IMG/VR virus record: IMGVR_UViG_3300023176_002545
Reading direction: 5' to 3' (one strand)
Source: a virus
DNA: 64,000 nucleotides
Below the pieces are notes generated by a model. It was not told the origin of the DNA. It searched no databases and was given only the letters and a program-made list of their open reading frames with translations. This document shows, piece by piece, positions 884 to 15,215 of this stretch; position 1 is the first letter of the stretch, and every line of letters begins with the position of its first letter. The position numbers and the translations under genes are program-made.

Positions 884-1336
884 ATGAGTAATAAAATCAT
901 TTGCAGTGGTGCTATCGTCTGTTCACTAAAAACTAAGCGATTCCTGCTGCTACAAAGGACACATCAAAAGCAAATAGGCCAATGGGGATTAGTAGGAGGA
1001 ACTAATGACTCAAATGAGTCTCCATGGGAAGGTCTAACGCGAGAGATTATAGAAGAAATAGGTTCTTTACCTAACTTTGTTAAAGTTATTCCATTAGAGC
1101 TTTTTGTTAGTAATGATGAAAAATTTAATTTTCATACATATCTTTGTTTTGTAGATGAAGAGTTTATACCTGTTTTAAATGAAGAACACTCGGGATATTG
1201 TTGGGTTGATTTTGGTGTGTGGCCTAAACCCTTACATCAGGGGTTGCGAAATACTTTAAATAATGCTACAATAAAAACTAAAGTATTAACCGCAGTCGAT
1301 GTATTACAATATATCGAGGATCAGAATGATAATTAA
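884..1336 (+). CDS. Nudix hydrolase
   Basis: Complete Nudix box GX5EX7REUXEEXG: GTNDSNESPWEGLTREIIEEIG. Confidence 0.92.
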   Translation: MSNKIICSGAIVCSLKTKRFLLLQRTHQKQIGQWGLVGGTNDSNESPWEGLTREIIEEIGSLPNFVKVIPLELFVSNDEKFNFHTYLCFVDEEFIPVLNEEHSGYCWVDFGVWPKPLHQGLRNTLNNATIKTKVLTAVDVLQYIEDQNDN

Positions 1337-1856
1337 AGATTTATGGCCTACAAAATTAATACAGTTCAAATGGGATAATCAAGAACTATTAGGTAATGTT
1401 GTTAACGACATTATTCTAAAATTTCCCGATGGTATTAGTGATAGTGAACGTCCCGATATAGAAGAATATCCTGAAATTAAACCAGCATATGATTATGTTA
1501 ATGACTGCGTTGAAAAATTTTTAGAGGTTGAATTTCCTAAACAAGGAACTTATTCTTTTAGCTGGTGGGTACATGTTTATAGACAAGGTGCTACACATCA
1601 TATACATAATCACTTAGGCAGTCAGTTTACTGGTATACTTTATCTTGCAACACCTCCTGTAGGCGGAGAACTAGTATTACACGATCCAAGAGGTAATGCT
1701 AACAGAGGTTATAATAATAATTTAAAACATATGTTTGATCCTATTATATTAAAACCCGAAGCAGGTGATTTGTTTATATTTCCTAGTTTTGTTTGGCACA
1801 ATGTTGAAACTGTAAAAGACATGCGTATATGCATGCCATTCGATGTGTGGTGTTAA
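1326..1856 (+). CDS. Putative 2OG-Fe(II) oxygenase (phage/TIGR02466-like)
   Basis: HxH...H triad (HIHNHL ... FPSFVWHNV), GILYL and LVLHDPR motifs. Start moved to ATG 1326, which has GAGGA at 1316-1320. Confidence 0.8.
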   Translation: MIIKDLWPTKLIQFKWDNQELLGNVVNDIILKFPDGISDSERPDIEEYPEIKPAYDYVNDCVEKFLEVEFPKQGTYSFSWWVHVYRQGATHHIHNHLGSQFTGILYLATPPVGGELVLHDPRGNANRGYNNNLKHMFDPIILKPEAGDLFIFPSFVWHNVETVKDMRICMPFDVWC

Positions 1857-1857
1857 T

Positions 1858-2319
1858 ATGCTACTACCTAGTGTTAGTCTATCGTACGATGAATTTGTAT
1901 CTTTAATTAGAAGCGAGCATGCTTTTAATGAAGACATGGTTAGTTATATTGATCGAAAAGGCTTGCAACACTATTTAAAATTTGACGATTATATTTCATA
2001 TCTAGGTAAAATAGATAACTTATTGTTAGACAAGGATATAACAATTAAAGTAGAAAAATATGAAACTATGTGTAACTTTAATAAAGGCACTGTTCATATA
2101 TTTTATGCTAAAGAAGGAAGTCCTAGTTTTGACGAGCATTGTGATCCTGTAGACTTAATGTTGCAAGTAACACATGGTGTAAAAACAATAGAAATGAATC
2201 AAAGAGATTATACGTTGCATAAGGGAGAACGTTTATACATTCCTGCAAGTACATTACATCGTGCAACAAACAAATATGAAAGCATTATGCTATCTTGGGG
2301 TATAAATGACTGTACATAA
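1858..2319 (+). CDS. JmjC/cupin-type Fe(II)/2OG oxygenase
   Basis: SFDEHCDPVD (HxD), HGVK, LYIPASTLHRA (distal His). ATG 1858 directly follows the upstream TAA. Confidence 0.7.
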   Translation: MLLPSVSLSYDEFVSLIRSEHAFNEDMVSYIDRKGLQHYLKFDDYISYLGKIDNLLLDKDITIKVEKYETMCNFNKGTVHIFYAKEGSPSFDEHCDPVDLMLQVTHGVKTIEMNQRDYTLHKGERLYIPASTLHRATNKYESIMLSWGINDCT

Positions 2320-3331
2320 TGCTACACAATATATGTCCTATATTAAAACAACCGAGACTTGTAATTTAAACTGTTCTCATTGTTTTACTAACGGTACAAG
2401 TGGACGTAAGATTTATTTTAACCCTGTTGCTACAGCAGACTTTTTTAATAGGCTGTATGCCAAAATGCCCAACAGTGGAATAGCGTTTGAGTTTCACGGT
2501 GGTGAGCCTATGCTTGCACCTGTAGAAGATATGAAACTGTTTCACAAACTGACTTACGATGTTTGGGGTGACAGAGCATACTATGGCATGACTACTAACC
2601 TAACTTATAAACTAACAGACGATAAACTTGATTTAATATACGGAATATTGCACAAGCGTTTGGGTACAAGTTACGATCCGTTTATACGTTGGGCAAATGA
2701 AAAACAACAAAAATTATGGGAAGATAATGTACGTCAACTAACAGCAGACGGTGTTGAAATCAAATGCTTTGTAAGTCTAAGCAAGGACATGATACAAGAA
2801 AACCCAGCAGATGTTATTGAATATCTTATTAGTTTAGGAATACAAGAAGTTGACTTTGAACGTTTAACTTCAGACGGTAATGCAGTACGCAATCCTAAAA
2901 TATTTCCTACAAATATAGAAATACAAGATTGGTATATGCTGCTTCATAAAGAAACACAAGCAAGAGGTTTGCGTGATAAAATATACAATCAAACACTTGA
3001 AAGTGTGTATATGAAGTTTGAAGAAGGCATTACTCGTGCAAGTACATTTTGTAGAGACTGTGAGCAAAAACTGTTTACTGTAAATGCAGATGGAACTATT
3101 GCAGGATGTCCTAACTCAGCACCTACAGCACACTATGCACACATAAGTGATGACATTGACACTGTGTTATATCATCCAGAACGTATGTGTAACATTGCTA
3201 ATGAATTAAATAGAAATCCCAAGTGCTATGAATGCCCTGTGCAGTTTTATTGTGGTGGCGACTGTTATAAACTTGCGTGGGAAGGCAATGTATGTCCTGC
3301 ACCTAAAAAACTTATGTTGGAGTTGGCATAA
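2306..3331 (+). CDS. Radical SAM/SPASM enzyme 1
   Basis: CNLNCSHC, FHGGEP and C-terminal SPASM cysteines (CRDC...GC...CYECPVQFYCGGDC...C). Confidence 0.93.
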   Translation: MTVHNATQYMSYIKTTETCNLNCSHCFTNGTSGRKIYFNPVATADFFNRLYAKMPNSGIAFEFHGGEPMLAPVEDMKLFHKLTYDVWGDRAYYGMTTNLTYKLTDDKLDLIYGILHKRLGTSYDPFIRWANEKQQKLWEDNVRQLTADGVEIKCFVSLSKDMIQENPADVIEYLISLGIQEVDFERLTSDGNAVRNPKIFPTNIEIQDWYMLLHKETQARGLRDKIYNQTLESVYMKFEEGITRASTFCRDCEQKLFTVNADGTIAGCPNSAPTAHYAHISDDIDTVLYHPERMCNIANELNRNPKCYECPVQFYCGGDCYKLAWEGNVCPAPKKLMLELA

Positions 3332-4365
3332 TGGATTTAATTATTAAACCAACAGAAGCGTGTAACTTTAAATGTACATTCTGCTCGTCAACTAAGATTG
3401 ACCCTAACAATGCAGGACTACTTGATCACGATTACATTTTTAGATTTTTAAAACGCTATCCTGATACAAACACTATTATTGTAAATGGTGGCGATCCACT
3501 AATGGTCGAGCCAGACTATTACTGGAAGATTATCAAGTTTTTAGATGAACATAATATGCCTGCAACTATTAGTTTTACTAGTAACTTGTGGCCATTCTAT
3601 GTTAAGCCGGACAAGTGGGTTGAACTGTTTAATCATCCACGCATGGGTATTGCTACTAGCTTCCAATACGGTAGTGGCAGACTTAAAGGCGATATGAGTG
3701 TGTTCACTGAAGAAGATTTTTGGAAAGTATCAGACAAGATGTTAGAGCTTGTAGGATACCGTCCTGAGTTTATTGCTGTTATTGATGATATGAATGATTG
3801 GAGTATTATTAAAACAGTTGAACTTGCTAAACAAATGGACGTAGTATGCAAAGTAAACTATGCTATGGCCAGTGGCGAACAAGGTTACACTTATCGCCTA
3901 AGCAAAATATATAAAGCGTATTTAGACATACACGAAGCAGGTCTTACTCCTTGGGAATATAACACACAACAAATGATACGCAGACTGCAAACTGACACAA
4001 CTACGTGTCCGCAGAACAGACACTGTGACGAAGGTATTAGAGCATTTAATCCAGGTGGTGACTATTACAGTTGTGGCAGCTTAGGTGATGACAAAGATTA
4101 TCCTATTGACTTTGAATATGAAATGTCAGGCGGATTTAGCACACCATTGCAAGATGCACCTGAACTTATATCAATGAAGCAGGCTTGTTTGACTTGTCCT
4201 ATGTTCCGTATATGTAACGGCTGTCGTAAAACCGTGCGAGATCATAAACGTGAAGGTGTTGTAGAAGATCATTGTTTTCAAATGAAACAACTTGCACCTA
4301 AGATACTAGAACTTAATGGTCAAGATCCTAACGAAGTTACACCTTATGTGAGAGAATATGACTGA
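3331..4365 (+). CDS. Radical SAM/SPASM enzyme 2
   Basis: CNFKCTFC, NGGDP and SPASM-like CPQNRHC...YSC...CLTCPMFRICNGC...HC. Confidence 0.93.
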   Translation: MDLIIKPTEACNFKCTFCSSTKIDPNNAGLLDHDYIFRFLKRYPDTNTIIVNGGDPLMVEPDYYWKIIKFLDEHNMPATISFTSNLWPFYVKPDKWVELFNHPRMGIATSFQYGSGRLKGDMSVFTEEDFWKVSDKMLELVGYRPEFIAVIDDMNDWSIIKTVELAKQMDVVCKVNYAMASGEQGYTYRLSKIYKAYLDIHEAGLTPWEYNTQQMIRRLQTDTTTCPQNRHCDEGIRAFNPGGDYYSCGSLGDDKDYPIDFEYEMSGGFSTPLQDAPELISMKQACLTCPMFRICNGCRKTVRDHKREGVVEDHCFQMKQLAPKILELNGQDPNEVTPYVREYD

Positions 4366-5275
4366 GTTTACTGTTAGCATAAACCCTACATACTTTTGTA
4401 ACTTTCGTTGCGACTTTTGTTATCTTACACCAGAGCAACTAGCAAACAAACATCGTATTAGCCCACAAGAACTTGATCAAAGATTAAGCGAAATAACTGT
4501 GCCTATTACACACGTTGACTTATATGGCGGTGAAATAGGATTACTTGACAAAGATTACTTTTACAGCATTAAAAGTGTAATAAAAAAACACTTTGCTGGT
4601 ACTATAAATATTAATACTAACTTTAGTGCAAGACCGGATTTCTTTTTAGACGACGATGTGCATGTTAGTGTGAGCTATGATTTTGAAGCACGTGAGCTAA
4701 GTGACACTGTGTTAAGAAACATATTATTGTTTCCTAAAGATGTAAGTGTACTTGTTTTAGCAAGCCCAAAAGTATTAGCAACAGACGTAGACTTTATGAT
4801 TAACACATTTAATATGGTTCAGAATATTAAGTGTGTTGAGATAAAACCTTACAGCACTAACCAAGCAAATGCACACCCTGTTACACACAAAGACTTTGAA
4901 GAACACGTTAAAAAATGGATAGAGTCACCAATACAAAAGCAATTTGATTTTGTAAATGTTGACGAGTTAGAAGATGTATTAGATGGAAAACGTAATGCAT
5001 TTTCAAACGATCATGTTTATATTACTCCAGATGCTAAGTTTGGTGTGCTAGAGTTTGATGACAATGATAATGAATATTTTGAAAAATATAATAAATTTGA
5101 AGATTATCTATTTTGGGCCGATCAAGAGCCAACAAAAAATTTAAGTCCTATATGTCATAGTTGCGAATACTATGGAAAATGTTTAACAGAACATTATAGA
5201 TTTGTACATGACTTAGATAATGGATGCAATGGTTACAAAGGATTAATAGACTGGTATGCTAGACTGGAAGATTAG
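4358..5275 (+). CDS. Radical SAM enzyme 3 with C-terminal Cys cluster
   Basis: CNFRCDFC, YGGEI and C-terminal CHSCEYYGKC...GC. Confidence 0.9.
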   Translation: MTEFTVSINPTYFCNFRCDFCYLTPEQLANKHRISPQELDQRLSEITVPITHVDLYGGEIGLLDKDYFYSIKSVIKKHFAGTININTNFSARPDFFLDDDVHVSVSYDFEARELSDTVLRNILLFPKDVSVLVLASPKVLATDVDFMINTFNMVQNIKCVEIKPYSTNQANAHPVTHKDFEEHVKKWIESPIQKQFDFVNVDELEDVLDGKRNAFSNDHVYITPDAKFGVLEFDDNDNEYFEKYNKFEDYLFWADQEPTKNLSPICHSCEYYGKCLTEHYRFVHDLDNGCNGYKGLIDWYARLED

Positions 5276-5675
5276 ACAACAACTTTTTAATTCTACTGCG
5301 GAAGAATTTACAGACGACTTAAATTTAGTTAATATTCGCACAGAAGAAGATAGTGTTACTTGGGCAGTAAAACACTTTAACGAACGTGTAGACGAATGGG
5401 TATATCCTGCTAAAAGTTATTTTGTAGCAATATGTTATGCTTATTGGATTAGTTTAGATTTTCGTTACGACTTTATTGAACTGCTAGACGACAAAGACTT
5501 GTTAGCAGGCAACGATCCATACTTTAAAACTTATAGTGAAGATAAAGCAACTTACAATGCTATACTTGATCAGGTTGAACTACCTGATCCTTCATCTCAG
5601 ATGGGAATGGTGCCCGACGTTCGATCGTATTATGAGGAAGAGATGATGTTTGACGAGTATCCCCTACATAGTTAA
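5256..5675 (+). CDS. Hypothetical protein in the radical SAM locus (139 aa)
   Basis: Overlaps the stop of rSAM3 in operon fashion. Acidic, with the YPAKSY...DLLAGNDPYF segment. No function recognised. Confidence 0.65.
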   Translation: MLDWKIRQQLFNSTAEEFTDDLNLVNIRTEEDSVTWAVKHFNERVDEWVYPAKSYFVAICYAYWISLDFRYDFIELLDDKDLLAGNDPYFKTYSEDKATYNAILDQVELPDPSSQMGMVPDVRSYYEEEMMFDEYPLHS

Positions 5676-6771
5676 AAAATTCACGTATAGGACATACGCC
5701 CGGCGGTAAGTCTCTTGCACGGTTCTTCCAGTCCCATTGTGTATAACAACGAAAACCACAACGATCAAAATAAGGACAACTTAAACAACCTACTTCATCC
5801 ATGTATGCTTGCATAAGGTTGGTGTTGTCTTTTCTAATATATGCATGATTAAAGTCATTGCGTGTATAACGATGCCAACGACAGTTTGCAGTTGTGTTGT
5901 CAGGGAATATTGTGAGCTTGTTTAAACTCATACAGTGCATTTGATTTTTATCTTGTGTTAATAATTCTCTATAAGGAAATACCATAGGATAGTTATCTGC
6001 AATATATTTCATAAACTTCAAATACAAACTATCACTTGGTACTAGATGATCGTAACCTGGATCAGGAATAAAATCATCAAAGAACAAATCAAAATTTTTG
6101 TACAAGTAATCAAAATACTCATCGCCAGCAAACAGTGCGTTAATACTGTCTGTTGTTGCTACTAGGTTAATAGTAGACACATAGTCTTTGAAACGTTCGA
6201 TATTTTTAGTGTATTGTCCGCCTGTAGGACGACCGCTTAGATCATAACTAGCAATCAGTTTACTTGGGATGTCTACTGCATTTAATTTGTCTAACAGTGT
6301 ACGTACATCTTCGTGATATTTGAATAAAAAGTTGCTGACCCAAACTACTTGTATTACATGTCCGTACTTGTCACAGATTTTTTTAATCTCAAGCATTAGA
6401 TCATAATACATAGGATACAGTGTTTCTCTTGCACGGTCTTGAAACAGCTCTCCGCCTACCATATTAAACTGCATAGCATGTACTTTGCCTTGCATCTTTT
6501 TACAGTGTGCTTCTACTAGAGGAAGTTTAGCAAGCATTTCAGGATATGTCATGCCCACTGTACTGTCTTTGTCATGAAAGCAAAAGTCGCACACAATAGG
6601 ACAGTTTTCAAATAGAGTGATTTCTATTTCGCCAATAAGAGGACGCTTACGCTCTAGTATCATATGCGTAACTGCATTTGCTGCTTGTTGTTCCGGAGTG
6701 TCTAATAAATGATCGTCGGTAACATTTTCAGGCATTAATGCTTTTAATATTTCTGTGCCACAACCGCCCAT
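5560..6771 (-). CDS. Radical SAM/SPASM enzyme 4
   Basis: CPIVCDFC, VGGEL and HC...NC...CLSCPYFDRCGFRC...VC. Confidence 0.92.
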   Translation of the reverse strand: MGGCGTEILKALMPENVTDDHLLDTPEQQAANAVTHMILERKRPLIGEIEITLFENCPIVCDFCFHDKDSTVGMTYPEMLAKLPLVEAHCKKMQGKVHAMQFNMVGGELFQDRARETLYPMYYDLMLEIKKICDKYGHVIQVVWVSNFLFKYHEDVRTLLDKLNAVDIPSKLIASYDLSGRPTGGQYTKNIERFKDYVSTINLVATTDSINALFAGDEYFDYLYKNFDLFFDDFIPDPGYDHLVPSDSLYLKFMKYIADNYPMVFPYRELLTQDKNQMHCMSLNKLTIFPDNTTANCRWHRYTRNDFNHAYIRKDNTNLMQAYMDEVGCLSCPYFDRCGFRCYTQWDWKNRARDLPPGVCPIREFFNYVGDTRQTSSLPHNTIERRAPFPSEMKDQVVQPDQV

Positions 6772-7895
6772 TATCTATAACCTATATTATTGTAAAGTGC
6801 CATTACGTTTTTATTTATAAGGCACTCGTTTTGTTGTATTACATCTGACATGAGTGTTTGTATTAGCCTTGAGTTACAATTTTCAACATACTCACAGTTG
6901 TTGCACACAAGGTTAGGTATATTTTTATACTGTTGTATTTGCAAGTTGTGCTTTTTATTCATTATACTTGTTAGCACACTGCCTTCTATTGGTATCTCAA
7001 AGCTCTCATGATATATTGGAGAGTTTTCATATAAGAAAGGAACAACATATAACTTGTCGTTATTAACAGTAACAATAACTTCGTTAAAGTTTTTATGACT
7101 ATTATCACTTTGTTGCCAAATAAAGTTTTCTTTAAAACGTTTTTCGTCTTTGTCTACAACACTTTGTATACTGTTATTCCAGCCTTGTATTATGCCTAAC
7201 ATTTTGTCAGGCTTGTTTACCATTGCACGTACTAGACTAGGTCCCCATTCTACAACAGTACCCCATTTTTTACGCACACTTTCTATTTTATCCAATACAT
7301 CATCGTCAACTTTTTGTGTAATATTACAAAGCAGACTTACTTCATACTCAACACTACTTGCTTCCATCATTGCAAGGCGTTTTTCAATAAGACTGTGTAC
7401 GTTTGAGTTATCCAACATATGCAAGTCAACTGCTATTTGTACATCAAAAGGACGCTCACAAAGATAACTGTTTTCAACATGTTTAATTACTTGTTCAACA
7501 CGTTCGTCTCCGATGAAAAAATCAACTGAACAGTTGTGTTGCAAGCCTCCTTCTTCAGGTAAAGCATCAACTATTTTACGAAAACGAGGATCTTCTAATA
7601 CAGGTATAATATTGCCGCTTGAAAAGAAATCGGTAGGTCCTACAATAATATCATCAAGCACATATTGTTCGGTTAGTTCATCAACTAATTGTGCTGCTAG
7701 GTCAAGTCCTAACCCTGTTCCGTAGTTTTTTCTGCGTTTAACAAAACAACCTGAACAGTTATATGCACACCCTTCAAGTATTTCAAGCATGAGTTGTATT
7801 TTTATTTTGTTTTGATCAGCAGGATTTACAAAACCTTCATCATGATAATCTGTTTTATTTTTGTTTAAGTAGTCTTGCCAATCTTTACGTAGCAT
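6771..7895 (-). CDS. Radical SAM enzyme 5 (GPTD subfamily)
   Basis: GCAYNCSGCF, VGPTD and CNNCEYVENC...EC. Start set at ATG 7895 (MLRKDW), overlapping the upstream stop region. Confidence 0.85.
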   Translation of the reverse strand: MLRKDWQDYLNKNKTDYHDEGFVNPADQNKIKIQLMLEILEGCAYNCSGCFVKRRKNYGTGLGLDLAAQLVDELTEQYVLDDIIVGPTDFFSSGNIIPVLEDPRFRKIVDALPEEGGLQHNCSVDFFIGDERVEQVIKHVENSYLCERPFDVQIAVDLHMLDNSNVHSLIEKRLAMMEASSVEYEVSLLCNITQKVDDDVLDKIESVRKKWGTVVEWGPSLVRAMVNKPDKMLGIIQGWNNSIQSVVDKDEKRFKENFIWQQSDNSHKNFNEVIVTVNNDKLYVVPFLYENSPIYHESFEIPIEGSVLTSIMNKKHNLQIQQYKNIPNLVCNNCEYVENCNSRLIQTLMSDVIQQNECLINKNVMALYNNIGYR

Positions 7896-8964
7896 TATAG
7901 CTCTCCAATACACGTAAAGGATATACACAGTCTTTAAATTTATAGTGTTCCATATACTTTAGTACATGTTTACTCATACATATTTCTCTACGACTACAAT
8001 TTTCACAACTTGTAGTTTCTGATAGGTAATCTAGCTGTTCTAAATATAATGTTGTTTTTAAATCAGTCCAACTTTTAATGTCTGTAGGATTTTGCACACG
8101 AAACTCATCAGTTTTTATTAGTGCTGCTTCATAAACAAACGGAGTTGAATAAAACTCTCCTTGACTGAATGTATAGTTAAGTTCAAACGGACCACCTTGG
8201 TCTTTGTCTGCAATAGTCATTGCAAGATATTCTTTATTTGTATCGTTAAAAGTATTTTCAATAGTCTTAACCCAGTCATTAATTAAACGTTCGTGTATTA
8301 CACCTTTGCTGTAACGTTGATAGCTAGGTAGTGTTTCCAATATACTTTCGTATTCATCACGCACTATGCGACTTATTTCTGCTAGATTTTCAATATTGCT
8401 ATCTATATTAAATGTAATGTAATAATCTACAGGATCAGTAAACTTGTTTAGTACTTCATGTATACGTGCAATGTTATTTTTTCTATATGTAGGATCTAAA
8501 ACTTGTTTAGGATCTATTACAACTTGGAAACCATATAGAAAATCATCACGCTTTGGTATACTGTTGAACTTCTCTATAACTTGGTCAATGTATTTGTCGT
8601 CTGCTTGCAGTGTACTTGGCATTTCAATAGTAGTACAACGACTTACTAGCGTTCTAAAGTTTTCGTAATCTAGTAAATCTAATATATTCAAGTTACCAAA
8701 CACATCTGTAGGACCAATGTTTACACTTGTAAAGCGTATATTGTTAGACATAAACAGTTCTTGTGCATCAAGTACCTTTTGAATGTCTTCGTTTGTAACT
8801 TGTTGACGTCTACGATTAACAAAGCACCCTGCACAGTTATGTATACAACCATCAAGAACGTCTAGAGTCATGTTTACTTTTATTTCGTGAGCATTTGCCA
8901 CACCAATATTGTAATCTTCGTGTCCTCTAGTTGTTTCCCAATAGTTATTTTTTACGATTGGCAT
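7885..8964 (-). CDS. Radical SAM enzyme 6 (GPTD subfamily)
   Basis: GCIHNCAGCF, IGPTD and CENCSRREIC...DC. Confidence 0.85.
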   Translation of the reverse strand: MPIVKNNYWETTRGHEDYNIGVANAHEIKVNMTLDVLDGCIHNCAGCFVNRRRQQVTNEDIQKVLDAQELFMSNNIRFTSVNIGPTDVFGNLNILDLLDYENFRTLVSRCTTIEMPSTLQADDKYIDQVIEKFNSIPKRDDFLYGFQVVIDPKQVLDPTYRKNNIARIHEVLNKFTDPVDYYITFNIDSNIENLAEISRIVRDEYESILETLPSYQRYSKGVIHERLINDWVKTIENTFNDTNKEYLAMTIADKDQGGPFELNYTFSQGEFYSTPFVYEAALIKTDEFRVQNPTDIKSWTDLKTTLYLEQLDYLSETTSCENCSRREICMSKHVLKYMEHYKFKDCVYPLRVLESYNAT

Positions 8965-10126
8965 GGTATACTTTCTTTATTTCTTCTAGTCGTTCATCGC
9001 CGTCTTCAGTTACTAAGAACTTTTTGCGATAACCTTGCTTGTCTGCTTCAACTGAATAGTCTGTCCAGTCATACATTTCTGCTGCACTTTTATTATAGTT
9101 ATAAATGTTCTTCATCATATTTTCTTTAGGTGCAATACAAGTGTCTACACCTAAGTAATCACGTAGTAATATTACTTTTCTGTTATAACAACTAAAGAAC
9201 AAGTCGCAATTTTCACACTCTGTACCTTTTGCACGTTCCATTTGTGTTAGTGTCTTGTAATATGCTTCGTCTAAGTCCTTAACTTCAAACTGTTCATCAT
9301 ACAATGCCATGTTTTCATACATAAATGGACTCAAATACCACTTGCCCTTCTTAAAGTTAAGTACTGTGTAGTTGTGTCCAGCATGAGAATGGTCAACCAT
9401 GATGTTGTTTAGATGAGTGTCTTCAGGTAGTGCTTCAAAAAATGCATTAAACTGGTTAAGTGTACGCAATATTATGTTAGGTTTATGGCTACGACTAACA
9501 CTTGGTATAAAGTCAATGGTAGTATCAAACTCTTTAACTACAAAATCATGTATTTGTTCATAGTCTAAGTCATATTGTCTAATGTTTACAATGAATGTGT
9601 ATGTACATTCGTGTTTTAGGTTAGCATCAATGTACGCAATACAACGTTTGAGCTGTTGTATGTACAATATGTCCTTGTAACGCATTGGATCTGTTGCAAT
9701 ACCTACCTCTATTTCAGTATCAGTGTTAACATTGGCGTGTAAGAAGTTAATCCAACGCTCTAAGTAGCTCATGTCTTGCTCTAAAAAGGTTGTAGTGAAC
9801 GCAAGTATAGGAGAGTTTTCATTTATCATAGACAACAAGTCGGGATCTTGCATTACTTGGTAAAAGTTTTCGCTAGACAGGCAGTCTGTTGGGCCTATTA
9901 GTACTTCATCTACTAAAATTCCCTTGTCAGTTATGCGTTTTACAAACTCACGGCACTGTTTTAAGTGATTTTCTTCAGGAGCATTGCCTCTACGGTGTAC
10001 AAAACAGCCCGGACAAGCGTGTATACACCCGTCTAACACATCTAATTGTATTTTTACGGCACTAACTGGTTTAGTTTGTGTTTCTGTTGTTAGCTCGTAG
10101 TACAAGTTGTTCTTAATGACTGGCAT
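8945..10126 (-). CDS. Radical SAM enzyme 7 (GPTD subfamily)
   Basis: GCIHACPGCF, IGPTD and CENCDLFFSC...TC. Confidence 0.85.
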   Translation of the reverse strand: MPVIKNNLYYELTTETQTKPVSAVKIQLDVLDGCIHACPGCFVHRRGNAPEENHLKQCREFVKRITDKGILVDEVLIGPTDCLSSENFYQVMQDPDLLSMINENSPILAFTTTFLEQDMSYLERWINFLHANVNTDTEIEVGIATDPMRYKDILYIQQLKRCIAYIDANLKHECTYTFIVNIRQYDLDYEQIHDFVVKEFDTTIDFIPSVSRSHKPNIILRTLNQFNAFFEALPEDTHLNNIMVDHSHAGHNYTVLNFKKGKWYLSPFMYENMALYDEQFEVKDLDEAYYKTLTQMERAKGTECENCDLFFSCYNRKVILLRDYLGVDTCIAPKENMMKNIYNYNKSAAEMYDWTDYSVEADKQGYRKKFLVTEDGDERLEEIKKVYHANRKK

Positions 10127-11141
10127 TTAGGTACTCCTTGGGCAATACACACTCTGTTAAACCTCTATCTTGCATGTAAAACAGTACATTACGCTCTGCA
10201 CAGCTCATTAAATGAGGACAACTTGCACATTCTTGAGTATTTTCAGCATATGCAAGGTTGCGAGACAAGAAATCATCACTGTTTATGTTTTGTACTTCAA
10301 AGTTTGGTGTACGTTGCAGTATAGCATCGTACAAAAACGGATTCATATACAGTTTACCATTGTAAAAACTGTAGTTAGAGCATCCATAGCCATTAAACTG
10401 TGCATCAAACATAGTATACAGGCTTTTGTACTTGGGGTCAATCTTTTGTTTGCTTAGTTCTTGTATAAACATTGGCAAATATTTACTTACTTTGCCTCTG
10501 CTGTTACGATCGTTAAGGAAACTTGGTAGTATAACTACAGGAGCATTGAAATCTTTCATGGTCATATCACATAAATGATTGTAATCAACACTATCAAATA
10601 TGCCTGGATAGTAGTTTACTCTAAACTGCACACTGCCTTGTTTAAACAGTTCAAGTTTGCGACACATATCTTCAACATCGCCCTGCAAGTAACGTTCAAT
10701 GTCGAGCACTATCTTAAAGTCTATGTCAGGTGTGCGATCTAGTCCTTCGTAAAGGCTCCAAATCTTAGTGTGTTTAGCAAGTATTGTGTTGTAGTCCTGT
10801 AGTAGCGTTGAGTTAAAACTTAATGCTGCAATGTTGTACAAGCGTTTCATACTAGGATGCTCCATCAACTCCCAAAAGTTTTCAGCATCAAATATATCAG
10901 TAGGTCCTATTACAACATCGTCAGGTGTATATGCACTAGATTCTAGTATATCACAAAGAGTTGTTAAGTGATCAGCACTGGTTAAGTTTTTGCGTGGAAT
11001 AAAACAGCCAGGACACTGTTGACTACAGCCGTGTAGTATGTCAGCATGAACTTCAACCCTAAGAAAGTTGTTATCCTTAGGGCTTACACCTTCAACGTAG
11101 TTATTAAATCCTGATGGAGTTGCGTTTAAGTTAACGAGCAT
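10113..11141 (-). CDS. Radical SAM enzyme 8 (GPTD subfamily)
   Basis: GCSQQCPGCF, IGPTD and CASCPHLMSC...EC. Confidence 0.85.
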   Translation of the reverse strand: MLVNLNATPSGFNNYVEGVSPKDNNFLRVEVHADILHGCSQQCPGCFIPRKNLTSADHLTTLCDILESSAYTPDDVVIGPTDIFDAENFWELMEHPSMKRLYNIAALSFNSTLLQDYNTILAKHTKIWSLYEGLDRTPDIDFKIVLDIERYLQGDVEDMCRKLELFKQGSVQFRVNYYPGIFDSVDYNHLCDMTMKDFNAPVVILPSFLNDRNSRGKVSKYLPMFIQELSKQKIDPKYKSLYTMFDAQFNGYGCSNYSFYNGKLYMNPFLYDAILQRTPNFEVQNINSDDFLSRNLAYAENTQECASCPHLMSCAERNVLFYMQDRGLTECVLPKEYLNASH

Positions 11142-12312
11142 TGACGATTTTCAAGGCATCGTCATTCCATTGCTCTGTGCTGTCAATAAACGGATTGTAC
11201 ATTTCAAGTACTTCTAGCGGCATCAGGCACTCATGCATATTCATAGCGTCTTGTGCTTGGAATATCAGTCTGTTTGCACATGCTACAGCATACTTACAAT
11301 CAGCACAATCCTTAACAGTGGAAGACTTTGCCAAGCCTTTTGCTATTAGTTGATCCCTCTTTGCCAATATTTCTTCAAAACTTAAACCTGTTACTTCTAA
11401 TTCTTTATGTTGTGTAAAGAACGCTTGTTCGTGTAGCATAACATTTAGGAATACACGAGGTGCATCAAAGCCAGGAATAATAGTTAGCCCTATGAAGTTC
11501 ATTGAGTTACAGTACAAGTTAGCCATACTCATTGTAACATCAGCATAGTTATCTTGATCTACTACTTCTTTTAAGAAGTTGTTCCATGCTACTAGATTCT
11601 TACGCTGGTGTAATACACTTGGTGCTCTAGAGAACGCAGGGTTCATTTCTAGAATAGTTTCGTAATCTTCAAGAATCTTGTATAGCAGTTTGTTGTAGTT
11701 TTCTTTAGTTAGATGTTTTTGCATTACATTACTTGCTTGTAATGTCCAACTCCAGTCAATGTTTTTAGGAGTTTCATTTGCAAAGAACTCTAGTTTTGCT
11801 TTTATGTCTTTGAAATATTCTTCATCATTAAGTATACGGTCAATATCACCTACTGGCATAATAAACTCAATGATCATTTCATCTCTGTATTTTGCAGGAT
11901 CGTCAAGTATTGAAAATACTTCACGTAGTCTTTCCATGCTTACATCGTCTATTTTGCTAGGTGTAGCAATACGTGCTTTTGTATGTTCACGCATGATATC
12001 CTGTATAATAGGATTGTTAAGAATATTGTCTGTATTATTTGCTGAGAAAAGATCAGTTGGACCAATAACAAACTCACGTAAATTAAGTCCTGTGCGTGTT
12101 ACGCCGTCTGCAAGTTCTTTTGCAGTAGTTAACATTGCATCCATTGTAGCAACGTCTTGATTTTTGTTAACAAAACAACCTAAACAACCATGGTTACAAC
12201 CAGTGAGTCCTTCAAAGTTAATTAGTACGTCAAACTTTTGTGCATGACTAGGAGGTAGACTCTCAGGTCCACTGTATCTCATCTGCTTGCAGTATGATTG
12301 TTGCATTGTCAT
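11131..12312 (-). CDS. Radical SAM enzyme 9 (GPTD subfamily)
   Basis: GCNHGCLGCF, IGPTD and CADCKYAVAC...EC. Confidence 0.85.
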   Translation of the reverse strand: MTMQQSYCKQMRYSGPESLPPSHAQKFDVLINFEGLTGCNHGCLGCFVNKNQDVATMDAMLTTAKELADGVTRTGLNLREFVIGPTDLFSANNTDNILNNPIIQDIMREHTKARIATPSKIDDVSMERLREVFSILDDPAKYRDEMIIEFIMPVGDIDRILNDEEYFKDIKAKLEFFANETPKNIDWSWTLQASNVMQKHLTKENYNKLLYKILEDYETILEMNPAFSRAPSVLHQRKNLVAWNNFLKEVVDQDNYADVTMSMANLYCNSMNFIGLTIIPGFDAPRVFLNVMLHEQAFFTQHKELEVTGLSFEEILAKRDQLIAKGLAKSSTVKDCADCKYAVACANRLIFQAQDAMNMHECLMPLEVLEMYNPFIDSTEQWNDDALKIVNAR

Positions 12313-13019
12313 TCTGTTATTCCCTCATCAAATAATTCTAGCATATTATTTGCAACACCATGTTTTATTAATGTGTTATATAAGTCAGCACCTTGATACT
12401 TACTTTCATTGTTAAAAACTCTAACATTTAAGTTACTAGTTGGCCACGGACCAAACTTATGTCCTAACAAATACAAAACATCAATAGCATATGTTGCTAT
12501 ATATACAATATTTAGCCCGATTTCTGTATCACTATCAGTGTATTCTAACTCTTCTGGCACAAGTTCTTTATACTTGTCGTTATATTTGCTGGCTTGATCA
12601 ATACAGAACAATGCAACGTGTTGCATTTTGTCTAACAAATCGTCAAATAATTTTCCATGTTCATTAATATACTCGTCGATCATATCATTTGACCACAGAG
12701 TATTCATTGCAGCATCAACATTGTTATATTCTTGACCTAATTTTCTTTTTGCAATTAGTGCTATAATTCTAGCTAGTAAAGGTGCTTCAACTAGAAAATT
12801 AATTTTAATATATTCATTTAGTAGTTCTGCATCAACAGTGTCAAACTGTACTTTAAAGTTTGTGTTAGCAATATAGACTAAGATATGTTTTACAGATAAT
12901 ACTTTTTTACTTTCTTCATAATTTACATGAAGAGTGTAATCATCACTATCTGCTTTGATCTTATAAATTTCTGCTAGATCTGTTGGTTTTAAAGGTAGTA
13001 TATAACTTTGTGTTGACAT
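12309..13019 (-). CDS. Hypothetical protein in the radical SAM locus (236 aa)
   Basis: Long ORF with a GGAGA SD, ATGA-type overlap with rSAM9. No recognised motif. Confidence 0.75.
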   Translation of the reverse strand: MSTQSYILPLKPTDLAEIYKIKADSDDYTLHVNYEESKKVLSVKHILVYIANTNFKVQFDTVDAELLNEYIKINFLVEAPLLARIIALIAKRKLGQEYNNVDAAMNTLWSNDMIDEYINEHGKLFDDLLDKMQHVALFCIDQASKYNDKYKELVPEELEYTDSDTEIGLNIVYIATYAIDVLYLLGHKFGPWPTSNLNVRVFNNESKYQGADLYNTLIKHGVANNMLELFDEGITE

Positions 13020-13027
13020 TGTGTCTC

Positions 13028-14080
13028 CTATACCAGTGGTTTTACTTTAAACAGCAAATACGGTATACGACTCTTACGCTTGTAGAAGAATTCTACTTCA
13101 CTCCAAGCATTTCTAAGTGCTTCGTTATTTGCAAAATTAAATCCGCCCTCTGCTATTTGTACTACAATAGGAATAGTTTTAGCAAATTCTTTGTATACTT
13201 CTTCATATTCCCAATCTTCGTGGTTGTTAATGAGTTCTAAGAGTTCAGCATTATTGCCAACATCGTTCCAAAAATCTCTTAACACATAAAGTGCTTGCAT
13301 GCGATTTTTATTTTGGAATGTATCTTTAACAAATTGTACTTTGTCCCATGATGAATTACCGTTTGCATGGAACCAATCAATAATACCGTTAATAACACTA
13401 ATATAACCAATTTTATTTTGTAGCATACCAATTACTTCATCAATCATTTTTTCACTGTGAACAGTGAATTTTTCACGCAAATGATTTTGTGTTACTAAGT
13501 TAATTTCTGCATACGTTTCATTTTCGTTATACTTGTCATTAATAAAGAAAAGTATATCATAACCCCAATGTTTACTACTTGGAGTGCCCATGTTATGCCA
13601 TTCATTTTTAGCGTAAACATCTTCAACACAACCGTTAATATCATTTTCTGTAAATGTAGTGTATGTTGCGTATGTAATATCTCTTTGGAACACTAACTTT
13701 AAAAAGTCTTTTACTACATCTTTAACATCTTTGTTAGTTGCTGTTTGTAGTAGAGATGCAATATACTTTGCATATACACGAATTAAATCTAATGCATCAT
13801 CAAATAATAAAAACTCTTTGTCATTGTTTGACAAATATTCCCATGTGTTTATTTGATCAGTTGTAGTGAACGAAAGCATATCCGGATTTGCATTAGGATA
13901 ATCTGTAAGTAGTGTATTAACATACGAGTCTCGTACTTGTGAGTGTCCTTCCGGTGCTACTAACACCATTTTTCTTGTTTGATCGCCTGCCCAAGGACTC
14001 TCTGCTAAAGCACTTACCATAGAGCTAGACTTTCCTAAATATTTCTTATTGTTGATATAATAAAAACTTTCACCTATCAT
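13028..14080 (-). CDS. Hypothetical protein in the radical SAM locus (350 aa)
   Basis: Long ORF whose start overlaps the stop of the CHxS protein (TAATG). No recognised motif. Confidence 0.75.
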   Translation of the reverse strand: MIGESFYYINNKKYLGKSSSMVSALAESPWAGDQTRKMVLVAPEGHSQVRDSYVNTLLTDYPNANPDMLSFTTTDQINTWEYLSNNDKEFLLFDDALDLIRVYAKYIASLLQTATNKDVKDVVKDFLKLVFQRDITYATYTTFTENDINGCVEDVYAKNEWHNMGTPSSKHWGYDILFFINDKYNENETYAEINLVTQNHLREKFTVHSEKMIDEVIGMLQNKIGYISVINGIIDWFHANGNSSWDKVQFVKDTFQNKNRMQALYVLRDFWNDVGNNAELLELINNHEDWEYEEVYKEFAKTIPIVVQIAEGGFNFANNEALRNAWSEVEFFYKRKSRIPYLLFKVKPLV

Positions 14081-14463
14081 TATCTTCTTCCCCTTGAGCC
14101 GTGACAGCTATAATGGCAACTACTATGACAGATTCTCCAATCAAAATATGTGTTAGTTAGTCTGCCTTCTATTTGGTTAACTGTGCGTGAAATACAGTTA
14201 GTTGCAAAATTTTGTACCTCACTTGCATATACTTTTAGATTATCTCCAATGTTATTTGGAAGATCTGCTGTACTATATGTTCCTTGTCCTGCGTTTACAT
14301 ACTCATAACGTCTGTTACCGTAAGCAGTTCCAGAACCCCAACCACTTACGTTTGCATAATAGCACGTAGCATTGAAGTTAATAGTCTTGTCAAAAGATCT
14401 AAGACGTAGATACGCATTGTTATAGTATCTTGTTTCTAAAGAAGCGTGTGACTCGCCTGCCAT
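14080..14463 (-). CDS. CHxS-repeat protein 1, candidate radical SAM substrate (127 aa)
   Basis: Ends ICHSSCHYSCHGSRGRR. Paralogous to the neighbour (LRxFDKT, GTAYGNRRYEYVNA). Confidence 0.8.
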   Translation of the reverse strand: MAGESHASLETRYYNNAYLRLRSFDKTINFNATCYYANVSGWGSGTAYGNRRYEYVNAGQGTYSTADLPNNIGDNLKVYASEVQNFATNCISRTVNQIEGRLTNTYFDWRICHSSCHYSCHGSRGRR

Positions 14464-14837
14464 TACCTTCTCCCTCTACTGCCGTGACAACTATAATGGC
14501 AACTTGTATGACAAATACGAAAATCAAAATACTGATTAGTTATTCGACTTTCGATTAAATCACAAGTTCTTGTTATAGCATTTAGTGCCTGGTCTATCAT
14601 ATGTCCTGCATCTACTAGTGTAGTATTGGGATACACGTTTCCGTTGTAATCACTGTTAGGAGCATTTACATACTCATAACGTCTGTTACCATATGCAGTA
14701 CCTGCGTTGTAACCGCCATAGTTTTGATTAGTATAAACTGTGGCTGCTACGTTTACAGTTTTATCAAACCCTCGCAATTGAGCACCAGCATTGCCGGTAA
14801 AATAATCTCTTGCGGATGTTCGATTCATGTTTCCCAT
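14463..14837 (-). CDS. CHxS-repeat protein 2, candidate radical SAM substrate (124 aa)
   Basis: Ends ICHTSCHYSCHGSRGRR. Starts 3 nt after the stop of the 4221-aa fibre gene. Confidence 0.8.
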   Translation of the reverse strand: MGNMNRTSARDYFTGNAGAQLRGFDKTVNVAATVYTNQNYGGYNAGTAYGNRRYEYVNAPNSDYNGNVYPNTTLVDAGHMIDQALNAITRTCDLIESRITNQYFDFRICHTSCHYSCHGSRGRR

Positions 14838-14840
14838 GGA

Positions 14841-15215
14841 TTATACCTTAACTTCAACTACATCTGTACCGTCTTCAATAGCAACACCAATTAATAATGT
14901 GTATTCTGCTATAGTACTTAGTTCGTCTATAGCACGGCCTGCACCGTCCTGATCAGCAATAATATACTGACCTTTCTTAGCAGAACCGTTAATCTTACAT
15001 GGAACACGACCTTTTAGTGCAACGAACGGCCACATTGGATCATCTCTGTTATCGTCTGTTTGGTTCATCATCAAACCTGGCTGTGTTGATACAACGCCTG
15101 CTAGTTTCATGCCTTCTTTGTATAGTGTAACTTCTTTGTCGCCACCAATACCTAGTACTGTACCTGGAGCATACACTGCGTCTGCTTCGTATTTCTCTGC
15201 CAAGTCAGCCCAGTT
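14841..15215 (-). other. C-terminal intramolecular chaperone / autocleavage domain (Peptidase_G2-like) of the fibre
   Basis: ADLAEKY...GVVSTQPGLMMN...VALKGRVPCKI pattern. Confidence 0.65.

Follow-up and report, generated by a model that had tools for sequence, protein, structure and literature searches.

A widespread radical SAM cassette with a conserved C-terminal tail as presumed substrate and a recurrent link to fibre genes in jumbo phages and Bdellovibrionota

In a 64,000-nucleotide stretch of viral DNA (IMG/VR virus record IMGVR_UViG_3300023176_002545; the window means this whole stretch), positions 1299-14837 hold 16 tightly packed genes in two convergent operons, among them genes for radical S-adenosylmethionine (SAM) enzymes, two oxygenases and two small paralogous proteins that end in the same Cys-, His- and Ser-rich tail. 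This cassette is an uncharacterised, widespread variant of radical SAM protein maturation, with a distinctive substrate and a recurrent link to fibre genes. It is read, with moderate confidence, as a system that matures protein tails by chemistry like that of ribosomally synthesized and post-translationally modified peptides (RiPPs) and whose product stays attached to a carrier protein associated with the fibres that recognise host or prey. Maturation by radical SAM enzymes has so far been known for secreted peptides, for cofactors and for a few enzymes, to which a single bacterial antiphage effector was added in 2026. A conserved set of several enzymes acting on a protein tail within phage tail-fibre operons would be a new viral use, with no published description.

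The tailed proteins and their C-terminal module

The presumed substrates, referred to here as tailed proteins, are encoded side by side:

14463-14837, minus strand: tailed protein A, 124 aa, presumed substrate, ending in RICHTSCHYSCHGSRGRR
14080-14463, minus strand: tailed protein B, 127 aa, presumed substrate, ending in RICHSSCHYSCHGSRGRR

They share the C-terminus RICH[ST]SCHYSCHGSRGRR, followed by the stop, which closes a module of about 55 residues made of an amphipathic helix and then (Cys-His-x-Ser)x3-Arg-Gly-Arg-Arg at the very end of the protein. At the DNA level the two tails differ in 14 of 60 positions, so it is the protein that is conserved. Identity within the pair is 37-63%, against 66-99% between orthologs of other loci, and by these values A and B are an old paralog pair with kept gene order. 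The AlphaFold2 (AF2) model of tailed protein A consists of a helix, a hairpin, a second helix and a disordered tail (pLDDT 70.7), and fold searches with the model gave nothing above background (Foldseek PDB and viral searches, E at least 0.1; VIA Z at most 5.5). Tailed protein B has a weak match to phrog_35144 and a Pfam match to T4 gp30.8 that lies below the cut-off (E 0.0044). Both lack a signal peptide and a peptidoglycan-binding domain.

A degenerate DNA pattern for the tail, in which C, H and two S positions were fixed so that invariance at these positions is partly by construction, matched at least 119 viral contigs, far more than chance would give; among the matches listed, 113 loci have the tail in an open reading frame (ORF), always as the last 16 residues before the stop. 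Moreover, when 1.84 billion proteins were searched with a profile built on the last 58 residues, 721 representatives of 50%-identity clusters matched, and among the matches listed 150 of 150 end at the last residue. The N-terminal parts of the tailed proteins fall into several unrelated classes. Because homology between the 127-aa class and the common class of 180-200 aa is confined to their last ~55 residues (hhalign 99.4%), the module is the conserved part, as for a recognition element together with a core.

An unbiased sample of tails is provided by Bdellovibrionota loci found through rS2, one of the radical SAM enzymes described below. These loci mostly carry the canonical tail, with the variants CHSACHDNCHSSRGRR, CHSSCHADCHYARGRR and CHSNHCSHSNHGSRGRR. 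The last of these ends the tailed protein of a locus that has two rS2 copies (L173:10562-11170), and another Bdellovibrionota protein ends in CHSSHSSHSSHSSRGRR, four period-3 His-Ser-Ser units followed by RGRR (L177:4310-4918); the rS2 copies of both cassettes are more divergent, at 39-44% identity. Across the tail variants His and the RGRR end are constant, and Cys and the period of four are not. These variants tie the module to His-x-Ser (HxS) repeat chemistry.

The tail and the enzymes recur together. As counted by phmmer searches of the window proteins against all ORFs of the fetched loci, a radical SAM homolog accompanies the tailed protein in 128 of 134 loci, the six exceptions lying at locus or contig edges. 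The reverse also holds, in that loci found without the tail pattern have the tail as well, whether they came from tblastn with rS2 (S13, pPa_SNUABM_DT01 and Atu_ph07) or from the rS2 searches of Bdellovibrionota. The association that an earlier note on this DNA had put up for checking is therefore found in these 128 loci, in four unrelated lineages of cultured jumbo phages and in bacterial chromosomes. Conservation of rS2 across lineages (50-89% identity) parallels the near-invariant tail. A predicted complex of rS2 with tailed protein A scored 0.02 against a mark of 0.32, which is evidence neither way.

Radical SAM enzymes of the cassette

The earlier note had counted nine radical SAM genes with a CxxxCxxC motif. 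Nine ORFs of the window do carry this motif near the N-terminus (three on the plus and six on the minus strand), and all nine also have C-terminal Cys clusters, but only four of them, rS1-rS4, are firm radical SAM/SPASM-type enzymes as judged by motifs and profile matches:

2306-3331, plus strand: rS1, radical SAM/SPASM core enzyme (CNLNCSHC, seven C-terminal Cys; phrog_1802, E 1.6e-55)
3331-4365, plus strand: rS2, radical SAM/SPASM enzyme, the most conserved core gene (PF04055, 36.3 bits)
4358-5275, plus strand: rS3, radical SAM core enzyme with a four-Cys C-terminal cluster (CNFRCDFC; phrog_1802, E 4.9e-34)
5560-6771, minus strand: rS4, radical SAM/SPASM core enzyme, last gene of the minus operon (CPIVCDFC; phrog_1802, E 2.9e-26)

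All four match phrog_1802, 'radical SAM domain-containing protein' (E 1e-26 to 1e-55). A SPASM-like layout with 7-8 C-terminal Cys is found in rS1, rS2 and rS4, and a twitch-like layout of four Cys (CxxCx5C...C) in rS3 and in the divergent paralogs rS5-rS9. With its score against PF04055 (cut-off 29.5), rS2 belongs to the radical SAM superfamily, whereas rS1, rS3 and rS4 have the CxxxCxxC and a GGE/GGD motif but stay below that cut-off (26.2 bits for rS3). The SPASM domain model TIGR04085 is passed by rS1 (29.3 bits, cut-off 27); rS2 has eight invariant C-terminal Cys in CX10GX4C spacing, yet reaches 19 bits against this model.

Across 39 homologs, rS2 shows 50-89% identity and 11 invariant Cys, with 55-61% in the Ralstonia RSL2/RSF1 group, Agrobacterium Atu_ph07, Sinorhizobium Phosso and Pseudomonas pPa_SNUABM_DT01. 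Its profile, built from 40 sequences, aligns over the full length with the anSME structure 4K36 (E 3.8e-7), and rS1 has weak full-length NCBIfam matches to DarE, anSME and PapB. The window enzymes come near no curated NCBIfam equivalog; their highest scores, 36-42 bits where the cut-offs are 340-650, are for anSME, DarE, PapB and DynA. By these scores rS1 and rS2 appear closest to protein and peptide maturases, in agreement with the earlier view that the enzymes resemble such maturases and not cofactor or nucleotide enzymes. Homologs were found in 90 loci for rS1, 63 for rS4, 47 for rS2 and 34 for rS3, the orthologs of the last occurring in phages and Bdellovibrionota (E 1e-69 to 1e-116); these counts, like the one for the cupin below, are bounded by the length of the flanks.

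The other five ORFs are of a different kind:

6771-7928, 7885-8964, 8945-10126, 10113-11141 and 11131-12312, minus strand: rS5-rS9, divergent radical-SAM-like paralogs

They form one old paralog family (mutual E 1e-14 to 1e-27, 20-25% identity), four members of which match phrog_31457, 'unknown function', the product of 6771-7928 giving no match. Because CxxxCxxC is invariant, GPTD stands where radical SAM enzymes have GGE, and a C-terminal CxxCx5C..C is present, rS5-rS9 are graded as probable but unproven radical SAM enzymes, radical-SAM-like by their motifs. Matches to PF04055 below the threshold were obtained for 12 of 43 family members (17.6 bits for the best one in the window), and the family profile found no relative among PDB sequences. 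All five are syntenic in the loci of the window's own clade (L003-L008), and lone members occur in other cassettes.

Recurrence in cultured jumbo phages

Four unrelated lineages of cultured jumbo phages carry the cassette. In the Burkholderia jumbo phage S13, gp72, found by tblastn, ends in CHSSCHTSCHGSRGRR and is placed between a cupin, four radical SAM genes and two 2-oxoglutarate (2OG) oxygenases. The same tail ends Atu_ph07 gp170, pPa_SNUABM_DT01 gp65 and RSL2 ORF068, all of them neighbours of rS2. The recurrent core consists of rS1-rS4, the cupin, the 2OG oxygenases, the 139-aa protein and the ~240-aa protein, and the window's clade has added the five radical-SAM-like paralogs and a second substrate copy. 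Phages phiRP12 and RP31 were not among the tblastn matches for the tailed protein, rS7 or rS2.

Two true dihydrofolate reductase (DHFR) homologs lie inside the RSL2/S13 cassette (S13 gp77 and gp78, L009:16903-18080; PDB E 7e-30 and 1e-14). They are judged an insertion and not a component of the cassette, since they are absent from the window and all other versions. Papers on the cultured carriers list the cassette genes and assign them no function (PMC12390700; PMC11898562; PMC8066314), the number of radical SAM genes having been called 'highly unusual' (PMC12390700). A full-text literature search that combined radical SAM, bacteriophage, RiPP and SPASM gave nothing relevant.

Bdellovibrionota carriers and the link to fibre genes

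Outside viral contigs, the tail pattern was found in 27 contigs among 185,579 species genomes, of which about 15 are metagenome-assembled genomes of Bdellovibrionota. An rS2 ortholog is present in 19 of 401 sampled Bdellovibrionota genomes, on contigs that in some cases measure 1.3-2.8 Mb. Five cassette contigs of 219-247 kb (G093:C5, G240:C13, G314:C14, G371:C38 and G153:C66) could be binned jumbo phages, so the chromosomal location is claimed from contigs above 1 Mb. On a 1.29-Mb Halobacteriovoraceae contig, an 11-kb cassette is flanked on one side by genes for peptidyl-tRNA hydrolase and a GTPase and on the other by a gene for a 335-aa protein ending in a Peptidase_S74 fibre-chaperone domain.

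The latter neighbour recurs. Ten carrier genomes have 1-4 S74 genes each (22 in total), and in 8 of the 10 an S74 gene lies no more than 5 kb from the cassette, which covers 12 of the 22; because of possible common ancestry the genomes are not independent cases, although gene orders differ between loci. In a ninth carrier, the sole S74 copy is 26 kb away. The S74-terminated, fibre-like genes beside the cassette in the ten genomes are short (335-430 aa), and the copy in G001 (C1, ~299.0-301.0 kb; L159:2-1006) has a hydrophobic, pilin-like N-terminus. Trimeric fibres ending in S74 are prey-recognition adhesins in Bdellovibrio bacteriovorus (PMC10769870). Some Bdellovibrionota cassettes have no giant fibre nearby.

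In the window, the fibre gene belongs to the same operon as the tailed proteins:

14841-27506, minus strand: giant tail-fibre protein, 4221 aa, heading the minus operon (phrog_5342, E 2.7e-250)

The gene for tailed protein A begins 3 nt after the stop of this phrog_5342 gene, whose product also matches phrog_4527, 'short tail fiber protein'. In other jumbo phages the cassette neighbours genes for a giant structural protein, baseplate or spike. A fibre-linked context, as claimed earlier, is thus confirmed both by the 3-nt gap and by recurrence beside the rare S74 genes of Bdellovibrionota. The giant fibre has ten single Cys (positions 239 to 1681) spaced ~155-170 residues apart, with no CH-type motifs, and this spacing points to about ten tandem one-Cys domains. 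A 1500-aa protein encoded before the fibre (27572-32074, minus strand) matches baseplate wedge families (phrog_32294, E 1.9e-101), so that fibre and cassette follow a baseplate module.

Oxygenases, accessory proteins and layout of the locus

The further genes of the cassette are as follows:

1299-1856, plus strand: 2OG-Fe(II) oxygenase (PF13759 and phrog_81; 65.6 bits, cut-off 27)
1843-2319, plus strand: JmjC_2-type cupin oxygenase, core gene (PF08007, 29.6 bits, cut-off 22)
5256-5675, plus strand: conserved accessory protein of 139 aa (phrog_20737, E 2.7e-35)
12309-13019, minus strand: conserved partner protein of ~240 aa, here 236 aa (hhalign)
13028-14080, minus strand: 350-aa protein, mostly of the window's clade (syntenic in L003-L008)

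Homologs of the 2OG oxygenase were found in 22 related loci. The cupin passes the PF08007 cut-off with a match that spans profile positions 84-120 only, and an HxD...H iron triad (HCD...H) is seen in its sequence; its homologs, in 61 loci, usually adjoin rS1, as in S13, pPa_SNUABM_DT01 and Atu_ph07. The 139-aa protein has homologs in phage and Bdellovibrionota cassettes. Its AF2 model (pLDDT 89) has weak winged-helix-like matches (Z at most 3.6), and in the fold searches no relative stood out (Foldseek E at least 2.5, VIA Z at most 3.6, Atlas TM below 0.4). The 236-aa protein aligns with a ~240-aa family that adjoins the tailed gene in Bdellovibrionota and RSL2 (ORF070; hhalign 100%, E 2.7e-50). 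Profile searches gave it no relative in Pfam, NCBIfam, PHROGs or PDB, and a homolog search gave close marine relatives only, all named hypothetical. The 350-aa protein, found in 21 loci, matches no family in Pfam, NCBIfam or PHROGs, and Atlas feature searches with it and with the 236-aa protein yielded no usable match.

The plus operon contains the PF13759 2OG oxygenase, the JmjC_2-type cupin, rS1-rS3 and the 139-aa protein. In the minus operon, the 4221-aa fibre gene is followed, after the 3-nt gap, by the 124- and 127-aa paralogs, the 350-aa and 236-aa proteins and then rS9 down to rS4, with start and stop codons overlapping at most junctions. The 3' ends of rS4 and of the 139-aa gene overlap by 116 nt (5560-5675), so that the convergent operons share DNA. 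The earlier inventory agrees with this map: the two convergent operons, the two Fe/2OG-type oxygenases (one by PF13759, the other by JmjC_2/cupin match), and three further proteins without an assigned function beside the two small tailed paralogs. Scans of Pfam, NCBIfam and PHROGs found no peptidase, transporter or PqqD/RiPP recognition element (RRE) family among the proteins of the region, as had also been stated. The start of the locus had been put at 1326, a position inside the 2OG oxygenase gene, which begins at 1299.

The plus operon opens with a NUDIX hydrolase gene (884-1336; PF00293, 54.9 bits) that overlaps the start of the 2OG oxygenase and had no homolog among the related loci searched with phmmer. 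Ahead of it, a 260-aa ORF on the plus strand (84-866), without a Pfam or PHROG family, has phmmer similarity (E 3e-14) to a portion of gp140 of Atu_ph07, which is annotated as tail sheath. No enrichment was seen for the T4 late-promoter motif TATAAATA (4 seen, 7.5 expected), and scans for sigma-70 promoters and terminators stayed at or below chance level; expression timing is therefore read from operon structure alone. The source phage is marine, and its head genes (for the portal, a prohead protease and the major head protein, phrog_138) are of T4 type. It must be large, because the 117.8-kb IMG/VR record that includes the window has an estimated CheckV completeness of 33%. Megablast of the region against cultured phages gave no match.

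Proposed mechanism and alternative explanations

In the favoured reading, the helix of the module would dock the tailed protein on the enzymes, and the radical SAM enzymes would take hydrogen atoms from residues of the tail. The outcome may be carbon-carbon or thioether cross-links at the HxS units or at Cys, which are proposed because His-x-Ser is a three-residue unit of the triceptide type and Cys recurs with a period of four. An alternative or added reaction could be oxidation of the formylglycine type, proposed because rS2 is anSME-like. Characterised members of the JmjC_2 family hydroxylate Arg or His in ribosomal proteins, and the oxygenases of the cassette, including the JmjC_2-type cupin, may likewise hydroxylate His or Arg. 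The finished product would be a rigid, cationic and possibly metal-binding knot, neither cut off nor exported, whose carrier would be an adhesin or tip accessory acting together with the fibre when Gram-negative cells are bound or entered. Maturation of HxS repeats by radical SAM enzymes on a full-size protein effector has a precedent in the HXS system (PMC13128918).

Several points weigh against this reading. The tail chemistry is deduced entirely from enzyme families, and the rS5-rS9 profile could not be aligned with that of rS2 (hhalign probability 2.6%). No fold or family is recognised for the N-terminal domain of the tailed proteins, the 139-aa protein or the 240-aa protein, so that there is no structural tie to the fibres. 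For a place in the virion the support is indirect: virion proteins of Atu_ph07 detected by mass spectrometry cluster in 'CDS 170-215', and gp170, the first of this cluster, is the tailed protein (PMC6102473). The numbering of that paper agrees with RefSeq tags (gp140 for the tail sheath). The structural proteins given in the S13 paper do not include the tailed protein gp72. Finally, the cassette lies in bacterial chromosomes, so a virion is not required. What stands of the RiPP-like modification system proposed earlier is that tailed proteins and enzymes belong together, that the enzymes are maturase-like, that export and protease genes are absent and that the fibre link recurs; with copies in bacterial chromosomes, it is not strictly a system for modifying virions.

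Among the alternatives, the one that survives best, although unlikely, is that the same modified tail serves a non-structural effector acting in the envelope or cytoplasm of the infected or prey cell. Phages and Bdellovibrio-like predators both act through the prey periplasm. The effector could bind DNA or an envelope polymer like HxsA, exclude superinfection or be a decoy against HXS-type defence, and fibre adjacency would then reflect late co-expression only. The presence of the cassette in cellular chromosomes and the omission of gp72 from the S13 structural proteins agree with such a role, as do the period-3 HSS tails of Bdellovibrionota ending in RGRR (L177), which bridge to HxS repeats, and HxsA itself, an HxS-repeat protein matured by radical SAM enzymes that binds periplasmic DNA (PMC13128918). 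However, the tailed proteins have neither signal peptide nor peptidoglycan-binding domain, their genes share an operon with a fibre gene, linkage to S74 fibre genes is strong in Bdellovibrionota, and the structural cluster of Atu_ph07 starts at gp170.

It is quite improbable that the tail is an unmodified metal site, in which three Cys and three His hold Zn or Fe while the radical SAM enzymes act on the fibre or a small molecule. Cys and His do abound in the tail, HxH motifs bind iron in T4 gp37, and the ten single Cys of the giant fibre could be other enzyme targets. Yet the tail is paired with radical SAM genes in nearly all loci that have it (the 128 of 134 above), across unrelated N-terminal domains and fibres, and it occurs in Bdellovibrionota cassettes that have no giant fibre nearby. 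Moreover, most Cys are lost from variant tails whereas His, Ser and RGRR remain, a pattern better suited to recognition by an enzyme than to a Cys3His3 metal site.

Very unlikely, too, is a role of the tailed protein as scaffold for building and releasing a small cofactor or metabolite of the PQQ, mycofactocin or pearlin type, as part of an auxiliary metabolic pathway. In the pairs PqqA/PqqE and MftA/MftC, radical SAM enzymes act on a C-terminal peptide, and several radical SAM enzymes together with oxygenases on a C-terminal peptide, the DHFR genes of the RSL2/S13 cassette and the NUDIX gene at the head of the plus operon would suit such a pathway. Against it, no version of the cassette has a peptidase, DHFR and NUDIX genes are absent from other versions, the carrier domains are large and diverse and form an old, position-conserved pair, and the enzymes score best against protein maturases and not cofactor enzymes. 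A classical RiPP locus, with a secreted antimicrobial peptide cut from the tail, is hardly credible: SPASM enzymes and a Cys-periodic core do recall sactipeptide and ranthipeptide loci, but the locus lies within phage structural operons, lacks genes for a protease, transporter or immunity, and has as its 'leaders' folded proteins of 110-280 aa.

The maturation of a tail that stays on a fibre-linked carrier is therefore retained as the favoured reading. More tentatively, and with some doubt, jumbo phages and Bdellovibrio-like predators might share a horizontally exchanged kit that makes a His/Cys/Ser knot, by cross-linking and hydroxylation, on the C-terminus of a fibre accessory, as a chemically hardened, cationic tip needed to attach to or breach Gram-negative cells. 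The S74 linkage in Bdellovibrionota suggests that phages and predators have in common a means of attacking Gram-negative cells. If true, the tailed protein would be the first radical-SAM-matured component of a virion or fibre, and the system an offensive counterpart to the defensive HXS system. The invariant tail, together with the helix proposed to dock it, might in addition be used as a portable tag at which enzymes install cross-links. Laboratory-grown carriers exist (S13, RSL2, pPa_SNUABM_DT01 and Atu_ph07), which leaves the question open to direct experiment.

Comparison with known systems

Membership of the enzymes in the HXS, SCIFF or triceptide families, for which searches had been proposed in the earlier note, is contradicted by scores far below the curated cut-offs. 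With the ranthipeptide, sactipeptide and SCIFF systems (PapB and CteB, acting on CX3 cores), the cassette shares SPASM enzymes and a period-4 Cys core, and rS1 has a weak full-length match to PapB (E 2.2e-10). Scores are nevertheless low (PapB model NF047865, 40.3 bits against 340; TIGR04115, 23.9 against 350), the tailed proteins match no SCIFF or CXXX-repeat precursor model in NCBIfam, and window-type substrates are proteins of 124-300 aa with no protease or exporter, in whose tail variants the residue always kept is His, not Cys. The triceptide maturases YhhB, FxsB and GrrM act on an aromatic-x-x unit, to which H-x-S would correspond here, and match rS1 weakly; these matches lie mainly over the cluster-binding N-terminus and at least 10-fold below the cut-offs. 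QhpD is a single radical SAM/SPASM enzyme that puts several cross-links into a small protein of a larger assembly; the QhpD/QhpC system is matched weakly by rS1 (TIGR03906, 23 bits against a cut-off of 453), and the window has no dehydrogenase partner genes.

Among solved structures, anSME (PDB 4K36-4K39), which modifies Cys or Ser inside a whole protein, is the best match of rS2 and aligns with it along the entire radical SAM and SPASM length. The last tail repeat, C-H-G-S-R, is loosely reminiscent of the sulfatase motif C-x-P/A-x-R. In contrast, TIGR03942 scores are 42.1 and 37.5 bits (the latter for rS2) against a cut-off of 349, no sulfatase gene is among the ORFs of the region, and the third motif position in the tails is G/S/T/A/N and not P/A.

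In logic, the nearest characterised analogue is the HXS antiphage system, from which the window system differs in every membership feature tested. In HXS, HxsB and HxsC mature the HxS repeats of HxsA, with +8 Da on SHRSS, and matured HxsA attaches to DNA within the periplasm (Li et al., Nat Commun 2026, PMC13128918). Against the TIGR03976-03979 set, rS1 reaches 33 bits for HxsB (cut-off 370) and rS2 23.3 bits for HxsC (cut-off 267.9); the window has no match to HxsD or HxsA, its tailed and accessory proteins having no NCBIfam match at E below 0.1. The HxsA-type effector has an export signal and a peptidoglycan-binding domain, both lacking in the tailed proteins of the window, whose repeats stand at the extreme C-terminus together with Cys and a fixed RGRR end. 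HXS has two radical SAM genes and belongs to a defence island of Gammaproteobacteria, whereas window-type cassettes have 4-9 such genes plus oxygenases and lie beside fibre genes in phages and predators. What the two have in common is that radical SAM enzymes mature, or here would mature, basic HxS repeats on a lasting full-size protein (PMC13128918), the window tail having three HxS units and some of its relatives consisting purely of four HSS units and RGRR.

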